Assembly: GCA_021811565.1 (NCBI GenBank)
Contig: JAJZOL010000106.1
Span: 1-21,260, forward strand
DNA length: 21,260 nt
DNA from: a bacterium
Lineage (GTDB): Bacteria > Armatimonadota > Chthonomonadetes > Chthonomonadales > CAJBBX01
Direction of reading: 5' to 3'
Shown here: piece after piece, positions 41-16,124 of the stretch
Layout of the letters: each line of letters opens with the position of its first letter
Position numbering within the stretch: position 1 is the first letter of the stretch
Notes under the pieces: generated by a model
Database searches by the model: none
Seen by the model: only the letters and a program-made list of their open reading frames with translations
What the model was told of the DNA's origin: nothing
Program-made: the position numbers and the translations under genes

Positions 41-856
41 TTATAAAGCCCCCAGAAATTTGTGCGTTTGAGGAATGATCCGAACATCCCTCAAAGAGGA
101 TAACGCGACTCGATGAAGCGTACGTAATCGGGAAAGCGATATGGTCTCGCGAATATCCCCGCAAGGAGTTACGGGCTGAAGCACCAAAGGAATGTCTTTC
201 GAGAAACCGTTGATGATAACCGACACTCTTTCAATCTCTTCAAGCGTGGTGTCATCGCTCACCACGGCTTTGAGAAAGACGCGAACCGAAGAGTTCAACG
301 CAAGTTGCAAGAAGCGGGAATGTTCCTCCCATTTGGGAGGCTGATGCGTGGCGGAGGGAAGTTTCACGTCCATGGCGCAGTAGTCTATCAGATGAGCCAA
401 CGACGCAAACCTCTCGAAGAGATCGCCGCTGGTTTCCAGGTAAATATCCAAACCCATCTCCGCAATCTCCGGCAACCAGCCGAGCAGGAATTCCGACTGG
501 AGCAGCGGCTCGCCTCCCGTAATCGCCACGGAATGAAAAGCCTCCCCCGACACCATATCCTTGATAATTTCGATGAGGTCCGAACCGTTCACGGGATTGG
601 GAATCTCACGCACCTCATGGACACACTCGTTTTTTAATATTCGCAACGATTTACCGCGCGTTAGGGAATTCGGAGTGTCGCAGTAGGCGCATCTCAGATG
701 GCATCCCGCGAAGCGAACAAATAGTTGCCGCACACCCACCCAAAGACCCTCCCCTTGAAAACTATCGAATATCTCGGTGAGATAGACGGATGAAATGTTC
801 ACGGAAGGTCTTAACAGTCCATTATCCTGATTGGATTGCGGCATCGAATTCATCAT
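41..856 (-). CDS. queE: 7-carboxy-7-deazaguanine synthase QueE (radical SAM); start codon uncertain (Met13, Met14 or Met17 of the maximal ORF)
   Basis: Translation carries the EIFxSxQGEG motif followed by the CxxxCxYCDT radical-SAM cysteine triad (FAGCHLRCAYCDTPNS). Candidate ATG starts at 856, 853 and 844 sit just after the AAAGGA Shine-Dalgarno embedded in the 3' end of the upstream Rieske gene. The maximal ORF overlaps that gene by 71 nt, so a later start is more likely. Confidence 0.75.
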   Translation of the reverse strand: MMNSMPQSNQDNGLLRPSVNISSVYLTEIFDSFQGEGLWVGVRQLFVRFAGCHLRCAYCDTPNSLTRGKSLRILKNECVHEVREIPNPVNGSDLIEIIKDMVSGEAFHSVAITGGEPLLQSEFLLGWLPEIAEMGLDIYLETSGDLFERFASLAHLIDYCAMDVKLPSATHQPPKWEEHSRFLQLALNSSVRVFLKAVVSDDTTLEEIERVSVIINGFSKDIPLVLQPVTPCGDIRETISLSRLRTLHRVALSSLRDVRIIPQTHKFLGAL

Positions 857-1199
857 CCTTTTTGACAACGCACGTTGCTTCCTGATCGCCATCCGGAATT
901 TCCAGAAAAATCACTCCGTCCATGATTTTGCAAGGATAGGTTTTGGATTTCAGCCTGGGGTTATACACCACCTCACCCGTTACTGCGTTTATATCCCATG
1001 CGTGCCAGGGGCATGTCACGATTCCGTCATTCAACTCGCCTTCGGATATAGGGCCTTGTCGATGAGGGCATTCGTTATCCAATGCGTAAACGGTTTCGCC
1101 TTCCTTGAAAAGAGCGATTTCCAAACCGTCGATCTCCACCATTTTCCCCGTCGATTCGGATAGATCGGTTAGCATCGCCACAGGGGTCCAAATAGACAT
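822..1199 (-). CDS. small Rieske [2Fe-2S] domain protein (NirD-like Rieske ferredoxin)
   Basis: Translation has CPHRQGP...CPWHAWD, the two Rieske cluster-binding boxes (CxH ... CxxH), in a 125-aa protein. A strong SD (AGGAGAGAAGGA) sits 7 nt before the ATG at 1199. The 3' end overlaps the queE start, implying translational coupling. Confidence 0.8.
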   Translation of the reverse strand: MSIWTPVAMLTDLSESTGKMVEIDGLEIALFKEGETVYALDNECPHRQGPISEGELNDGIVTCPWHAWDINAVTGEVVYNPRLKSKTYPCKIMDGVIFLEIPDGDQEATCVVKKDDEFDAAIQSG

Positions 1200-1561: not shown

Positions 1562-1589
1562 TTGAAACCGGTATGATTCCCTGTAATAT
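1562..1589 (+). promoter_or_regulatory. sigma70-like promoter TTGAAA-16 nt-TAATAT driving the non-coding region 1597-2089
   Basis: Hexamers read directly: TTGAAA at 1562-1567 and TAATAT at 1584-1589 with a 16-nt spacer. No CDS follows on this strand for about 600 nt. Confidence 0.4.
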
Positions 1590-1596
1590 TCCTACG

Positions 1597-2056
1597 CCTG
1601 ACTTGGCATAATATTATCAAGCAGTTCCGCCGACCTGGTGGAAGAGGCGATTGACAGGACAAGGAATATCCGGCAAGGTCCTTCCCGTCGAGTTTTCCGT
1701 GAGGTCGTGAAGTGTCCAAGCAAATCGAAGGATTTGTGACAAGTCGTTCCGTGATCGAGTGGTACATCAGATCGCGAGAACGAGGTGATGGCGGTGATGT
1801 CGGGAAAGCGAGAGGTATTGCGCCTCCCGGCCGTTTGGAGAAGGGCGAGGCTTCAGCAGGTGAAGTTCGCTCACGCCCCGGACGAACCCTGTCCGCCGCA
1901 TGCCGCCGCTGCACGCGGTCGGGGCGCCGCCATCAACCTTGAAGCCATCGGAAGCTGGGTTCATACCCCGTTTCCGGTGGCGGAGAGACAGACAACTTCA
2001 GCGCAAGGCCTTATTCCTGATACTTGCTGGAGGCTTTACGTTTGGTACGGACACGC
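1597..2056 (+). ncRNA. candidate structured non-coding RNA of unknown class (about 460-490 nt, GC-rich, no credible ORF)
   Basis: Bracketed by the promoter at 1562-1589 and the terminator at 2057-2089. All three plus frames and the minus frame give only Arg/Pro/Ala-rich ORFs of low complexity. Local GC is clearly above that of the flanks. Numerous nested GC-rich hairpins are visible, for example GGGCG-AGG-CUUCA-GCAGG-UGAAG-UUCGCUCA-CGCCC near 1840-1880, and CCAUCGGAA...UUCCGGUGG near 1945-1980. Confidence 0.35.
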
Positions 2057-2089
2057 GGGGGAGTGATCACGCTCCCCCCTTATTTTCCC
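2057..2089 (+). terminator. rho-independent terminator (9-bp GC-rich stem, tetraloop, T-rich tail)
   Basis: GGGGGAGUG-AUCA-CGCUCCCCC (seven G:C pairs plus U:G and G:C) followed by CTTATTTTCCC. Confidence 0.7.
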
Positions 2090-2095
2090 TTCAGG

Positions 2096-2125
2096 CTTGA
2101 AAAATCCTCGCGGTTCCCACCATAA
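2096..2125 (+). promoter_or_regulatory. sigma70-like promoter TTGAAA-18 nt-CATAAT upstream of aat
   Basis: TTGAAA at 2096-2101 and CATAAT at 2120-2125. It lies immediately after the terminator and about 75 nt before the aat start. Confidence 0.45.
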
Positions 2126-2202
2126 TCTCCATAGGCGATAGCCGGCAATTCCATGTTCCGCTATTCCGAATTCTTTTCAGAGATTGCATGAATTGACATA
2201 AA

Positions 2203-2805
2203 ATGCGACAAAACAGGGTAATTCACATCAGCTTCACACCGGAGGGCATTGAACTCGCCTATCGCTATGGCATCTTTCCCATGGCGAATAGCGTAACCGG
2301 AGACATATACTGGTGCCGTCCCGAACCTCGTGCCATCATTCCATTGGATGGGTTTCATATCTCCCGCAGCCTTGCGAAGGTCATTCGGCAAAACCGTTTC
2401 GAGATAACATTCGATACCGATTTTGAAGGGGTGATGCGATGTTGCGCCGATCGCAAGGAGGGAACATGGATATCGGAGGACTTCATCCAAGTGTACGGTG
2501 AAATGCATCAATTGGGCAAAGCGCACAGCGTGGAGGCGTGGAAAGACGGTAAACTCGTCGGAGGAACATACGGGGTATCCCTCGGGGCGGTGTTCATGGC
2601 GGAAAGCATGTTCCATTACGAAACGAACGCTTCCAAAGTGGCTCTCGCCGCGTTGGTATCCAGATTGAATGAGAGAAGTTACGAACTGCTGGACGTTCAA
2701 TATCTCACATCGCACCTTAAAAGCCTTGGCGCGTTGGAAATCCCTCATCAAAGCTACATGCTTCTGCTCCACGCCGCCCTGAAAAAAGATCGCCAATTTA
2801 ATTAA
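2203..2805 (+). CDS. aat: leucyl/phenylalanyl-tRNA--protein transferase
   Basis: Translation aligns by eye along its whole length with E. coli Aat: YRYGIFPM / YQRGIFPW; RKEGTWISEDF / REEGTWITRGV; GKAHSVEAWKDGKLVGGTYGVSLGAVFMAESMF / [41 protein letters not shown] / ENASKTAL. Confidence 0.85.
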   Translation: MRQNRVIHISFTPEGIELAYRYGIFPMANSVTGDIYWCRPEPRAIIPLDGFHISRSLAKVIRQNRFEITFDTDFEGVMRCCADRKEGTWISEDFIQVYGEMHQLGKAHSVEAWKDGKLVGGTYGVSLGAVFMAESMFHYETNASKVALAALVSRLNERSYELLDVQYLTSHLKSLGALEIPHQSYMLLLHAALKKDRQFN

Positions 2806-3684: not shown

Positions 3685-3822
3685 CTACTTGCCGATCTTA
3701 TACATCTTGGTTCCGCAGGTGGCGCATGTACCTGTGGTTGCGGGCTTGCCGTTCTTCATTGTGACGGCGGTCGGGTTCTTCATCTCTTTCTTGGCTTTGC
3801 ATTTAACGCAATAGGCTTCCAC
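3685..3822 (-). CDS. small zinc-ribbon protein, 45 aa (DUF5679-like), not in the ORF track because it is under 60 aa
   Basis: Minus-strand translation V/M-EAYCVKCKAKKEMKNPTAVTMKNGKPATTGTCATCGTKMYKIGK-stop has two CxxC pairs (CVKC ... CATC) in a lysine-rich 45-aa frame. The GTG start at 3822 is preceded by AGGGGGGTGAGA, and an alternative GTG lies at 3831. The terminator hairpin at 3640-3660 follows. Confidence 0.6.
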   Translation of the reverse strand: MEAYCVKCKAKKEMKNPTAVTMKNGKPATTGTCATCGTKMYKIGK

Positions 3823-5719: not shown

Positions 5720-5828
5720 CCTTATTGCCGACAAGCGCATGGGTTTCAGGGTATAAATTTGGTGATCATTCCATGCATGGGTTACACTTATTTTCAAGAG
5801 GCGTTGTTCAGGGAGATTTGAAAGAGGC

Positions 5829-12875: not shown

Positions 12876-12946
12876 TCGCTTCCCGTGGGATAGCGTACCG
12901 TTTCAAACATATTAAAGCGTCACCTTGACGTATGGGATGGATAACC

Positions 12947-13864
12947 ATGGAGAACAGATGCGCCGCAATTGATGTCGGTACGAACACCGTTAAACTCACC
13001 ATAGTTGAGAAGGAATCCCGCAACGCTTTCATTCCCTTGGTGGACACTGCGGTAACCACACGACTAGGAGAGGGCATTCATGCAAAGCGACTTAGAGAGA
13101 CCGCGATTCGCCGCACGATCAATTGCCTGCAGGATTATATCGCCTTGTGCCGCGCGCATCATGTGGAGCGCGTTGCCGCCGTGGGAACGTCCGCCCTCCG
13201 AGATGCGGTAAATCGAGATGAGTTTCTGGAAAGAGCGGCGGAACTCGGACTGAACGTGAAGGTCATTTCAGGGGAGGAGGAGGCGCGTCTCTCTTTTCTG
13301 GCGGTTTCGCGCGATCCGTTATGGCGTTCCGCGGATAGGGTCGTTGTCGTGGATATCGGTGGGGGCAGTTCGGAGCTTATCCTTGGCGAGCCGAGGCTGG
13401 GGGATATTCAAGAGCGTATCAGCTTTCAGATCGGGGCTGTGCGGTTGACGGAGACTTGCATTCGCTCCGACCCGCCAAGCATACGCGACATGGCGGAATC
13501 CAACGCCGCCGTCTCAGAAGCGATGAAGGGATTCTCCTTGCCAGACTCATCCATGATAGCCGTTGGAGTTGGAGGGACGTTCGTCAACATGGCTGCGGTA
13601 AAGGAGGGGATGGAGCAAAAAAATCCCGAACGGCTGCATGGTGTTCGATTGACATCATTGGACGTGGAGGCGCAAATCACCCTTTACGCCTCGAAAACCA
13701 TTGAGGAGCGGAAAAGAATCACCGGACTTGACCCGGCACGCGCGGATATCATTCTTGGAGGCGCGATCATCCTATCTCAAATTCTCAGCCATTGCGGACA
13801 GGATTCCATCCATTGCAGCACGCGGGGTTTGCGATGGGGGGTGTTGTACGATGCGTTCCGCTGA
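12947..13864 (+). CDS. Ppx/GppA-family protein, N-terminal actin-like ATPase domains only (split gene, part 1)
   Basis: AIDVGTNTVKL...VGTSALRDA...VVDIGGGSSEL...GLDPARADIILGGA match the Ppx/GppA phosphate-binding and adenosine motifs and align with the N-half of the intact paralogue at 14568-16124. The frame ends with TGATAA exactly where the inter-domain linker begins. Confidence 0.8.
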   Translation: MENRCAAIDVGTNTVKLTIVEKESRNAFIPLVDTAVTTRLGEGIHAKRLRETAIRRTINCLQDYIALCRAHHVERVAAVGTSALRDAVNRDEFLERAAELGLNVKVISGEEEARLSFLAVSRDPLWRSADRVVVVDIGGGSSELILGEPRLGDIQERISFQIGAVRLTETCIRSDPPSIRDMAESNAAVSEAMKGFSLPDSSMIAVGVGGTFVNMAAVKEGMEQKNPERLHGVRLTSLDVEAQITLYASKTIEERKRITGLDPARADIILGGAIILSQILSHCGQDSIHCSTRGLRWGVLYDAFR

Positions 13865-13944
13865 TAACCGACTGTATAATCGCCGCTCATCCCTATTAAG
13901 AGAGCATTTATCCGCCACTCAAAATTGTTATTGTGAGGGGAGTT

Positions 13945-14571
13945 ATGGATTCCAAATTGCAACTTGACGCCATATTGCAAATTGCCAGTCGTTACAATTA
14001 TGATTCGCTTCATTCACATCAGGTTGAATGCCTCGCAGGCACTATCTTTATGGAGTTGCTGGAATACCATCAACTGAGCAGGGATGATCGGAAGCTTTTG
14101 GAATATGCGGCCATATTGCACGACATCGGCTACTACGTCGCCAGAAAATCCCACCATCGCCATACGATGATGATGATCCTGACCGAACCGCTCATTCCGT
14201 TCGACAGAGAGGATGTCAAAGTGATAGCCAATGTCGCAAGGTATCACCGCAAGGCTCTTCCCACTCCCGAGCATACCGTTTTCGGCACACTGAACGAAGC
14301 GGACAGGCAAAAAGTTCGCATTCTTGCCGGGATACTGCGTGTTGCCGATGCGCTGGATCACGCCCACAAGAGCCTGGTGAAGGAATTGACATGCGAAGTG
14401 ACGGAGGACTCCGTCGTATTTCATATCGTTTCCGATCAAGATTTGCCAGAGGAGATAGCATCCCTGAACGCTCGCGGGGATCTATTCCGTGAGGTGTTTC
14501 GCAAAACTCCGAAGGTAAAGGTCGAGGTGCCAAGGCTTGCCTCACCTCAGGCGGTTTTTCAAACGTCATGA
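13945..14571 (+). CDS. HD-domain protein corresponding to the Ppx/GppA C-terminal domain (split gene, part 2)
   Basis: ILHDIGYYV (the HD motif) and YHRK align with AYLHDIGCFL and LYHRKG of the intact paralogue's C-half. It has its own SD, GTGAGGGGAG, 4 nt before the ATG. The stop TGA overlaps the ATG of the next gene (ATGA). Confidence 0.75.
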   Translation: MDSKLQLDAILQIASRYNYDSLHSHQVECLAGTIFMELLEYHQLSRDDRKLLEYAAILHDIGYYVARKSHHRHTMMMILTEPLIPFDREDVKVIANVARYHRKALPTPEHTVFGTLNEADRQKVRILAGILRVADALDHAHKSLVKELTCEVTEDSVVFHIVSDQDLPEEIASLNARGDLFREVFRKTPKVKVEVPRLASPQAVFQTS

Positions 14572-16124
14572 AAATACTCGCAGCCATTGATATCGGCACC
14601 AACGCCATCCGTTTGGAAGTGGTTCGAATTGAAGCGGATCATAGCCTGACCACGCTTTCCCAGCAAAAAGAGACCGTGCGACTCGGAGAGGGCGAATTCG
14701 CCACCAACCACATGTCCCCCGCTGCCATCGAAAGAGGCGCTCTCGTTTGCGCTCGTTTCGCGGATATGGCGCGAGGTTTCGGCGCCGAAGAGATCATCGC
14801 ATTGGCGACATCCGCCGTTCGCGAAGCGGAAAACAAGCTTGATTTTCTGGAAAGAGTGAATAAGGAGGCCGATCTGGACGTGAAGGTGATCTCCGGACCG
14901 GAGGAGGCACGCCTGATCTATCTCGGGGTGTCAAGCGGAGCCGCCATAGGAGACAAGCGTTGCATCTTCATAGATATAGGCGGCGGCAGTACCGAGTTGA
15001 TTCTTGGGGATGGAAACGATTACTTCCGCTTGGAGAGTTTGAAGCTAGGGTCCATCCGCCTATCAAACAAATTCCTTCAAGGAGAGAAGGGCGCCATCTC
15101 ACCGGACAAGATGCAGAAGTTGAGGGAATACGTCAGGGGCATTGTAAGTCACACAACGCGTAACCTCACCGATTTCGGATATGAAGCGGTATATGGCAGC
15201 GCCGGCACGATCACCAACCTTGCCGATATCACCGCAAGAAGGCTTGGCGACTCGCCTTCCTCCTTGTTGAACTACTCCGTAAAGGTCTCCGATTTGCAAT
15301 CCAGCGTGGATATGCTTGCCAAGCTAAATTTGGAGGATAGGCGCAAGGTGCCGGGATTGGATCCAGATCGAGCGGACATCATACTCGGGGGTGCGGTGAC
15401 ACTGATGACCATCTTGGAGAATTTAAAGGCTGAGAGGTTGATCATCAGCGACCGAGGGTTGAGGGATGGTATCATTGTGGACAGGCTTATGCAGGAGGCT
15501 CCCTCCAGTCCGCTCTTCGACAACACCTCCCTGCGGAAAAGAAGCATCCTGCAATTCGCCCGCTCATGTAATTATGATGCCGAGCATGCGAAACAGGTTG
15601 CCAGGATCGCCTGTCAGCTTTTTGACGAGATGAAGCGATTGGGGTTTCATCCCTACGGACCGAAGGAGAGGGAGTTGTTGGAATTCGCGGCATATCTGCA
15701 CGACATTGGATGCTTCCTCTCTCACACGAACCATCAAAAACACGCCTATTATCTTATTCGCAACGCCGACATATTAGGGTTCAACGATACGGAAATCGCT
15801 ATCATCGCGAATATCGCTCTTTACCATCGAAAAGGCGTTCCCAGGAAAAAACATGAGAATCTCGCTTCATTAACTCGACCGGTTCGGCACCTTATCAGCG
15901 TTCTTTCGGCGATCATTAGGATTGCGGAGGGGTTGGATCGAAGCCACTTGAATTTGGTTCAAGGGGTGAGGATGGAACCCGCTCATAATCCGGACAGGCT
16001 CATCCTCACGATTCTTTCCGAGGCGGATTGTCAATTGGAGATATGGTGGGTGGAGGAGAACAAGCATCTTTTCGAAACGGTATTCGACAACTCCTTATCC
16101 ATCTCCGTCCACAAACCGGAATAA
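14568..16124 (+). CDS. ppx: exopolyphosphatase / guanosine pentaphosphate phosphohydrolase (intact two-domain Ppx/GppA)
   Basis: 518 aa with AIDIGTNAIRL, DIGGGSTEL and GLDPDRADIILGGA (ATPase half), then an HD half with YLHDIGCFLSH and LYHRKG. Confidence 0.85.
   Translation: MKILAAIDIGTNAIRLEVVRIEADHSLTTLSQQKETVRLGEGEFATNHMSPAAIERGALVCARFADMARGFGAEEIIALATSAVREAENKLDFLERVNKEADLDVKVISGPEEARLIYLGVSSGAAIGDKRCIFIDIGGGSTELILGDGNDYFRLESLKLGSIRLSNKFLQGEKGAISPDKMQKLREYVRGIVSHTTRNLTDFGYEAVYGSAGTITNLADITARRLGDSPSSLLNYSVKVSDLQSSVDMLAKLNLEDRRKVPGLDPDRADIILGGAVTLMTILENLKAERLIISDRGLRDGIIVDRLMQEAPSSPLFDNTSLRKRSILQFARSCNYDAEHAKQVARIACQLFDEMKRLGFHPYGPKERELLEFAAYLHDIGCFLSHTNHQKHAYYLIRNADILGFNDTEIAIIANIALYHRKGVPRKKHENLASLTRPVRHLISVLSAIIRIAEGLDRSHLNLVQGVRMEPAHNPDRLILTILSEADCQLEIWWVEENKHLFETVFDNSLSISVHKPE

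Follow-up and report, generated by a model that had tools for sequence, protein, structure and literature searches.

A candidate structured non-coding RNA gene between a Rieske protein gene and aat in a lineage of Chthonomonadales (Armatimonadota)

What is encoded in the roughly 1 kb of DNA that separates a Rieske protein gene on the minus strand from aat on the plus strand in a metagenome-assembled genome (MAG) of Chthonomonadales (Armatimonadota)—a placement that derives from the Aat protein in a scan of genome contigs? The stretch analyzed here, referred to as the window, covers positions 1–21,260 of contig JAJZOL010000106.1, given in nucleotides (nt), and the element in question is an intergenic region at 1597–2088 on its plus strand that is poor in open reading frames (ORFs). 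A preliminary description of this DNA had proposed an unclassified structured non-coding RNA (ncRNA) with its own promoter and terminator. The analysis described in the following supports this proposal: the element matches no RNA family in Rfam, bears no conserved reading frame, and shows compensatory base-pair changes between lineages. We assign a probability of roughly 0.7 to the reading that the plus strand from ~1597 (or ~1619) to ~2088 is a real, single-copy structured ncRNA gene of ~470–490 nt that belongs to an uncatalogued family outside those known. So far, this family is seen in one small clade of Chthonomonadales. The composition of the interval fits the earlier account as well, which had described it as GC-rich and lacking a credible coding sequence—the GC fraction is 0.585–0.65 across 1701–2000 versus 0.42–0.53 in the flanks, in a genome of ~50% GC, and no ORF inside 1400–2100 has a Pfam match.

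The syntenic locus was recovered from three further lineages (L003, L041, and L042), always between the Rieske gene and aat. Identical copies of the window locus are present in L001, L002, L054, and L061. The locus L003 from the MAG DAIDHP01 is 93.5% identical over 6.8 kb and has the minor variants L062 and L065. The locus L041, reached via a spurious ORF in a protein database, is 86.6% identical over 8 kb, and the RNA of this lineage recurs in ten further contigs, identical or with one base different. The most distant lineage, L042, and the partial locus L043 were reached via the Rieske protein, for which 16 candidate homologues were found among 5.8 billion proteins. With 16 such candidates in a collection of this size, the clade is rare.

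In the alignments of these loci, the element shows stronger conservation than the sequences on either side. Relative to L003, it carries one difference in the 476 nt of 1603–2078 (0.2%), compared with 3.9–5.7% in the rest of the intergenic region and 4.3–9.3% in the flanking genes; of the 24 differences in the entire intergenic region (1200–2202), a single one (1965 A>T) falls within 1589–2079. At larger distances, the RNA diverges by 9.2% from L041 and by 13.8% from L042—aat by 8.8% and 23.2%, respectively—and the upstream intergenic region is 40% different from L041 and not alignable with L042. The block common with L042 starts at 1603 (CTTGGCATAATAT) and stops with the terminator stem, and the edges of this conservation island fall at the promoter and the terminator of the putative gene. 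Within the island, conservation is patchy in the manner of structured RNAs, judging from the divergence of its segments: 4.5% (L041) and 7.1% (L042) in 1603–1800, 13% and 20% in 1801–1884, 0% and 1.8% in 1885–1939, and 21% and 28% in 1940–2039. The helices that differ by 13–28% in L041 and L042 carry one change in L003, whose RNA is 99.8% identical to that of the window. This near-identity might reflect either strong selection against uncompensated stem mutations over short evolutionary spans or a recent recombination.

A reading frame conserved among relatives—which the preliminary description had named as the mark of a protein gene in place of an RNA—was not found. The insertions and deletions between lineages are single bases, and in the frame of the 159-amino acid (aa) sense ORF of L041, the window carries three stops and L042 four. 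Substitutions in the RNA are spread evenly over the three codon positions (17/17/13 for L041 and 33/24/20 for L042), as opposed to a strong third-position excess in aat (8/6/39 and 28/15/97). Protein searches with translated frames of the RNA locus found no protein family. On this pattern of changes, the element is judged not to be coding. Public annotations nevertheless place proteins of 92 aa (P0001, NCBI/Logan), 68 aa (P0002, JGI), and 159 aa (JGI/Logan) over the RNA, with the spurious ORF calls located at 1785–2066 of the window and at 5728–6207 of L041. Such spurious calls, with lengths of 68, 92, or 159 aa, come from at least three public annotation pipelines, and these entries should be flagged as non-coding.

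The plus strand of 1597–2090 is predicted to fold with a minimum free energy (MFE) of −220.4 kcal/mol (z = −6.2), a stability reached by 0 of 100 shuffled sequences, versus z = −1.3 for the minus strand. The MFE z-scores of the three lineages are −6.2, −5.7, and −6.4, and the consensus fold amounts to −207 kcal/mol in the sense direction (structure conservation index, SCI, 0.97) versus −156 kcal/mol in the antisense direction (SCI 0.85). Two consensus models were tested on an alignment of the lineages (A4): a model of local folds with 161 pairs, 97.9% of cells paired, and 8 pairs changed on both sides, and a model that includes the long-range helices P3 and P1 with 171 pairs, 97.1% of cells paired, and 12 pairs changed on both sides. 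For the long-range model, 0 of 500 shuffles attain as many doubly changed pairs or as high a covariation score, and controls in which the pairing partners were slid show 39–45% paired cells with 0–2 doubly changed pairs. The parts of the putative gene and its surroundings according to this model are as follows:

1562–1589, plus strand: candidate sigma-70 promoter TTGAAA-16-TAATAT from a consensus scan, with a start at ~1596–1597
1597–1602, plus strand: 5′ strand of P1 (CCUGAC), pairing with 2040–2045 as a tentative closing helix
1603–1631, plus strand: A/U-rich segment CUUGGCAUAAUAUUAUCAAGCAGUUCCGC with hardly any variation, for the most part left unpaired by the consensus fold
1604–1612, plus strand: possible alternative promoter with extended −10 element TGgCATAAT, invariant in every lineage, with a start at ~1619
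1632–1706, plus strand: P2, a 75-nt irregular hairpin with an apical GGA-AUA-UCC hairpin and a GGCAAG bulge
1707–1744, plus strand: 5′ strand of P3, long-range pairing with 1995–2039; alternative local hairpin at 1713–1741
1745–1782, plus strand: P4 hairpin, CGUUCCGUGAUC ... GAUCGCGAGAACG
1783–1939, plus strand: P5 domain, in which a closing helix (1783–1796 with 1925–1939) surrounds three hairpins
1799–1831, 1832–1884, and 1887–1924, plus strand: P5a, P5b, and P5c, the hairpins within the P5 domain
1944–1981, plus strand: P6 hairpin, the best-supported helix
1995–2045, plus strand: 3′ strands of P3 (1995–2039) and P1 (2040–2045)
2057–2088, plus strand: intrinsic terminator, a stem-loop (2057–2078) with 9 pairs (7 of them G-C) and a 4-nt loop, followed by a U-tract
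2097–2126, plus strand: separate aat promoter TTGAAA-18-CATAAT, which is not part of the RNA and bounds it

Compensatory base-pair changes, for which the preliminary description had suggested looking in related genomes, are seen in several of these helices. In P6 (16 pairs, 98.8% of cells paired), six pairs are changed on both sides, and these changes include transversions (A-U to C-G and U-G; G-C to U-A; U-A to A-U)—for example, A-U, U-G, and C-G at alignment columns 352/383 and G-C and U-A at columns 356/379. In P5b, two pairs are changed on both sides (columns 238/287, U-A to C-G; columns 250/275, G-C to A-U), with five wobble changes in addition. Long-range P3 likewise shows two such pairs (columns 132/418, A-U to C-G; columns 145/404, A-U to G-C) along with several wobble changes and some breaks, and in the helices of its local alternative no pair is changed on both sides. 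Helix P1 comprises 5 pairs of which 3 vary, with 100% of cells paired and four variable positions (columns 5/447 read A-U, G-U, and G-C); as most of its changes are transitions, its support is weak to moderate and the helix stays tentative. The remaining hairpins vary little: P2 is predicted in all single-sequence and consensus folds with 20 of its 22 pairs never varying, and in P4, with 100% of cells paired, 14 of 15 pairs never vary.

Some motifs and pairings did not hold. The preliminary description had pointed to a 7-bp long-range pairing between AGGAAUA (1662–1668) and UAUUCCU (2012–2018); it can form in the window, but its outer two pairs are lost in L041 and L042, and it was rejected as no covariation supports it. 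A reading of GGGUUCAUACCC (1958–1969) as a T-loop was discarded, as the invariant A is absent from the loop and the motif is not kept in L041 and L042. The same applies to GGA loops in the manner of a CsrA sponge, the GGA motifs of which are not conserved in loops.

Concerning the ends of the putative transcript, a consensus scan of 1100–2400 yields 4 promoter-like sites versus 1.3 ± 1.3 in shuffled sequences. One of these is the TTGAAA-16-TAATAT site at 1562–1589, as noted earlier for this locus, whose −35 element is kept in L003 and L041 and whose −10 element varies (TATTGT, TAATGA). Slightly downstream, TGgCATAAT lies inside the invariant block CTTGGCATAATAT and could be an extended −10 element; a hairpin predicted over this segment contains mismatches and shows no covariation. 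As 1597–1602 is paired in P1, this helix lends tentative and indirect support to a 5′ end at or before 1597. At the other end, the intrinsic terminator of the earlier account is present with its 9-pair stem, 4-nt loop, and T-tract, and its stem-loop is the sole terminator-like site of the region. No lineage shows a change in the stem or its loop (GGGGAGUGAUCACGCUCC); a good U-tract is present in the window and in L041 (6 U), and a weak one in L042 (3 U). The aat gene had been credited with its own promoter after this terminator, and such a promoter-like site is indeed kept in all lineages, coming closest to the consensus in L042 (TTGAAA-18-TATAAT). A terminator that is followed by a separately conserved aat promoter suggests that the RNA is an independent unit, and we infer its transcription as a stable RNA of ~470–490 nt, from its own promoter to its own intrinsic terminator.

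A 13-nt imperfect inverted repeat brackets the RNA gene, with GATTTTTGAAACC at 1557–1569 and GGCTTGAAAAATC at 2094–2106. Since it corresponds to the −35 elements of both promoters and is not intact in L042, it is probably not the terminus of a mobile element. A sigma-54 or extracytoplasmic function (ECF)-type reading of the conserved motifs upstream was rejected because the spacings do not fit.

Does the element belong to a known RNA family? A search of the whole window against the 4227 families of Rfam 15 gave 0 matches at the gathering score; the models covered include RNase P, transfer-messenger RNA (tmRNA), signal recognition particle (SRP) RNA, 6S, OLE, GOLLD, ROOL, HEARO, T-box, and cobalamin. 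With lax filters and a cutoff of E ≤ 10, the region 1200–2250 and the L041 and L042 loci show only chance-level matches, namely to models of small nucleolar RNAs, microRNAs, or small regulatory RNAs (sRNAs), with 13–21 bits against thresholds of 36–93. The sole family that recurs between lineages, in L042 and L041, is MIR8001 in the conserved 3′-terminal hairpin region, where it stays far below its 90-bit threshold. ARAGORN found no tRNA or tmRNA in the window. The Rfam search proposed in the preliminary description hence gives no significant match in the window, L041, or L042, and the signature blocks of universal RNAs listed there are absent from the sequence. By these model searches, the RNA matches no catalogued family.

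Several points weigh against a structured ncRNA gene or limit what can be said of it. Its putative transcription is read from promoter and terminator patterns, and both hexamers of the promoter at 1562–1589 are degenerate in the most distant lineage, L042 (TAGAAC ... TAAGGC), which makes this detail weaker than in the earlier account. The 5′ end is uncertain by ~22 nt (~1597 versus ~1619). From the comparisons with L041 and L042, a less extreme similarity to L003 would be expected than the near-identity seen. For L042, the predicted folding of the antisense strand (z = −6.4) matches that of the sense strand, which means that there is no strand asymmetry in this lineage. More generally, the fold is derived from the same sequences on which it is tested, the shuffle control ignores their relatedness, and with only 3–4 independent lineages no proper significance can be attached to the covariation. 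The helices P2, P4, P5c, and the closing helix of P5 are invariant, and thus neither supported nor contradicted by it, and the 3′ third has two competing folds, local and long-range. Finally, neither the sequence nor the neighbouring genes point to a particular function.

How the RNA might act can be considered from the distribution of its conserved parts. Between its putative promoter and terminator, the RNA would form a closed multi-helix body, in which the tentative P1 brings the 5′ end together with the stretch immediately upstream of the terminator and which holds the P2 hairpin, the long P3 enclosing P4, the three-hairpin P5 domain, and P6. About 250 nt of this body (1603–1800 and 1885–1939) are almost invariant while the peripheral helices vary and covary, which is why a stable trans-acting folded RNA is considered—a protein-binding scaffold of a ribonucleoprotein, possibly a ribozyme. 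Invariant cores with a drifting, covarying periphery are the pattern of RNase P RNA, tmRNA, and OLE RNA, unlike that of seed-based sRNAs, and are typical of RNAs that are contacted over much of their surface. A scaffold or ribozyme mode, rather than that of a short base-pairing regulator or an aat leader, is nonetheless put forward with low confidence, well below that for the existence of the RNA gene itself.

The main functional rival is a long base-pairing regulatory RNA, in which the A/U-rich segment 1603–1631 would serve as the seed for pairing with mRNAs and the remainder as a stabilizing body. The near-invariance and mostly unpaired state of these 29 nt, as well as an intrinsic terminator like that of typical sRNAs, speak for such a role; however, the ~250 invariant nt include long helices and go well beyond the needs of a seed, size and branching are atypical for base-pairing sRNAs as generally known, and the segment may instead owe its conservation to the promoter element TGgCATAAT. 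We therefore regard a base-pairing role as unlikely, if worth keeping in mind. A cis-acting leader or attenuator of aat, with transcription from 1562–1589 running into aat whenever the terminator at 2057–2088 is bypassed, appears improbable. The RNA does share the strand of aat and stops 115 nt short of that gene, and the weak U-tract of L042 makes read-through conceivable. Yet the promoter-like site at 2097–2126 stands between terminator and aat in all lineages, ~470 nt are far longer than known leaders, no T-box or riboswitch model matches, and in the family-level relatives L004 and L005 aat directly follows other genes and the element was not found.

There is also a very small chance of a highly divergent universal RNA—RNase P RNA, tmRNA, 6S, or SRP RNA—that escapes the Rfam models. 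The size, the single copy, the housekeeping genes around it, the closing 5′/3′ helix, and the strong conservation would all suit such an RNA, but none of the four gave a match in three lineages even at E ≤ 10 with lax filters, neither a tmRNA nor the signature blocks of universal RNAs are present, and the branched fold is unlike that of 6S RNA. That the element has no RNA function at all, and spread recently between these lineages by recombination or is some small mobile unit or a DNA-level feature (clustered binding sites, for instance), strikes us as slighter still in probability. The L003 near-identity (0.2%), which is out of proportion to the divergence of L041 and L042, and the 13-nt repeat flanking the element would agree with it. 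Against this, the element occupies the same position in every lineage with a graded divergence (0.2%, 9.2%, and 13.8%), nothing at the DNA level explains why P6, P5b, and P3 show compensatory changes, the repeat is accounted for by two −35 regions and broken in L042, and neither a second copy in 68 loci and the window nor a plasmid, phage, or viral match was found; from these searches and alignments, the element does not look like a mobile element. The least credible alternative is a small protein gene of 92–159 aa. Its one argument is that gene callers report ORFs of 92, 68, and 159 aa over the locus, whereas the frame is broken by 1-nt insertions or deletions and in-frame stops, substitutions are even across codon positions, conservation reaches well past any single ORF, and neither a Pfam match nor a homologue exists in the searches made.

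With a structured ncRNA gene as the preferred reading, comparison to known large RNAs places it next to several types without assigning it to one. OLE RNA (RF01071), which acts as a ribonucleoprotein scaffold, is similar in its general kind only—large with several hundred nt, highly conserved, rich in helices, and found in extremophile carriers. It differs in that its model does not match here at E ≤ 10, that it is found in Firmicutes as opposed to Armatimonadota, and that it measures ~610 nt versus ~470–490 nt; in addition, no oapA-like membrane-protein gene adjoins the RNA, and oapA, oapB, and oapC are not among its neighbours. ROOL, GOLLD, and raiA-type RNAs are likewise large and multi-branched and were found as GC-rich or conserved intergenic regions, but no Rfam match, no tRNA in the window, and no phage match connects the element with them, and it is seen in a single small clade. 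RNase P RNA (type A/B) resembles it in size, single copy, a helix closing the 5′ end with the 3′ region, a conserved core surrounded by helices that vary, and a terminator behind the gene; RNaseP_bact_a and RNaseP_bact_b, however, give no match at E ≤ 10, and the conserved P4 blocks of RNase P RNA are absent from the sequence. With 6S RNA and Ms1 it would share the character of an independently transcribed, intergenic housekeeping RNA gene of the abundant type. 6S RNA measures ~180 nt and is built as a single long helix with interruptions and a bubble at its centre, whereas the RNA described here is more than twice as long and branched, with no Rfam match.

To our knowledge, bacterial ncRNAs of more than ~400 nt with elaborate conserved folds are rare and comprise RNase P RNA, tmRNA, group I and II introns, OLE, GOLLD, and ROOL. 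Those large bacterial ncRNAs that are understood are mostly ribozymes or cores of unusual ribonucleoproteins. We would give even odds to the wider proposal that this element is the first known example of a class of large (>450 nt) bacterial RNA with a complex fold, ranking with OLE, ROOL, and GOLLD, specific to probably thermophilic Chthonomonadales, and acting as ribonucleoprotein scaffold or ribozyme. If this were true, a further large-RNA class in the poorly studied Armatimonadota, from metagenome-derived lineages, would provide a new target for RNA biochemistry. Thermophily of the host lineages is an assumption made from what is known of Chthonomonas. The sample IMG 3300009503, which carries the L041 lineage, is listed among hot-spring metagenomes (PMC9599585). 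In the literature library searched, no paper was found that links Chthonomonas or Armatimonadetes with ncRNAs.

The narrow distribution was approached by various searches. The scan of genome contigs with aat returned one same-clade species (L003) and two family-level relatives (L004 and L005), which are not syntenic; aat directly follows other genes there, and the element was not found. Scanning metagenomes with two peptide patterns taken from a pseudo-protein alignment of the RNA returned solely the known L041 lineage, protein-database searches with sense-frame translations nothing but spurious ORFs of the same locus, and the antisense-frame translation one chance match among protein representatives, the Cna-B-type repeat protein P0009. 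An exact look-up of a DUF5679 protein encoded in the window gave minor variants of the L003 lineage only. Nucleotide searches with blastn against plasmids and phages gave no match to the RNA element, nor did two conserved DNA patterns match viral contigs. A profile search with nhmmer over 68 loci and the window found one copy per locus and no second copy.

The genes that adjoin the element directly, together with one that overlaps the Rieske gene, are the following:

822–1199, minus strand: Rieske protein gene
41–892, minus strand: radical S-adenosylmethionine (SAM) protein gene, overlapping the Rieske gene by 71 nt
2203–2805, plus strand: aat (TIGR00667, 188.6 bits versus a cutoff of 143.6)

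Including enolase and a PHP phosphatase, the neighbours of the RNA are, like the genes across the 21-kb window, housekeeping genes. The preliminary description had placed a Rieske–queE operon on the minus and aat on the plus strand. The Rieske and aat genes are borne out; for the radical-SAM protein, the best NCBIfam match to QueE reaches 75 bits versus a cutoff of 300, and models of glycyl-radical activases match about as well as those of QueE, so that its product is best described, on these profile scores, as a QueE-like radical-SAM protein.

Two short motifs upstream of the RNA gene are conserved as well. The motif TTGATGGAAGAATAKA at 1468–1484, within an inverted repeat (1445–1463 and 1465–1483), is invariant in all lineages including L042, where the surrounding upstream intergenic region is not alignable; situated between the RNA gene and the divergently oriented Rieske operon, it may be a regulator-binding site or a promoter element. 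ATAGTATACC at 1320–1331 is kept in all lineages, and its minus strand reads TATACT, likely the −10 box of the Rieske/radical-SAM/enolase operon.

Elsewhere in the window, the DUF5679 protein of 45 aa (3685–3822, minus strand) shows 100% identity among the lineages of the window, L003, and L041, and the DNA flanking its gene differs by 6–13% among them. To judge by this identity, the tiny, zinc-ribbon-like protein is under unusually strong constraint. Further along, an ORF with the Ppx/GppA catalytic domain (12932–13864) is followed by a separate ORF with domain III and an HD domain (13933–14571), and an intact Ppx/GppA paralogue of 518 aa adjoins at 14568–16124. The first Ppx/GppA gene (12932–14571) looks split; a frameshift or an error in the assembly could account for this, or the layout as two genes could be genuine.

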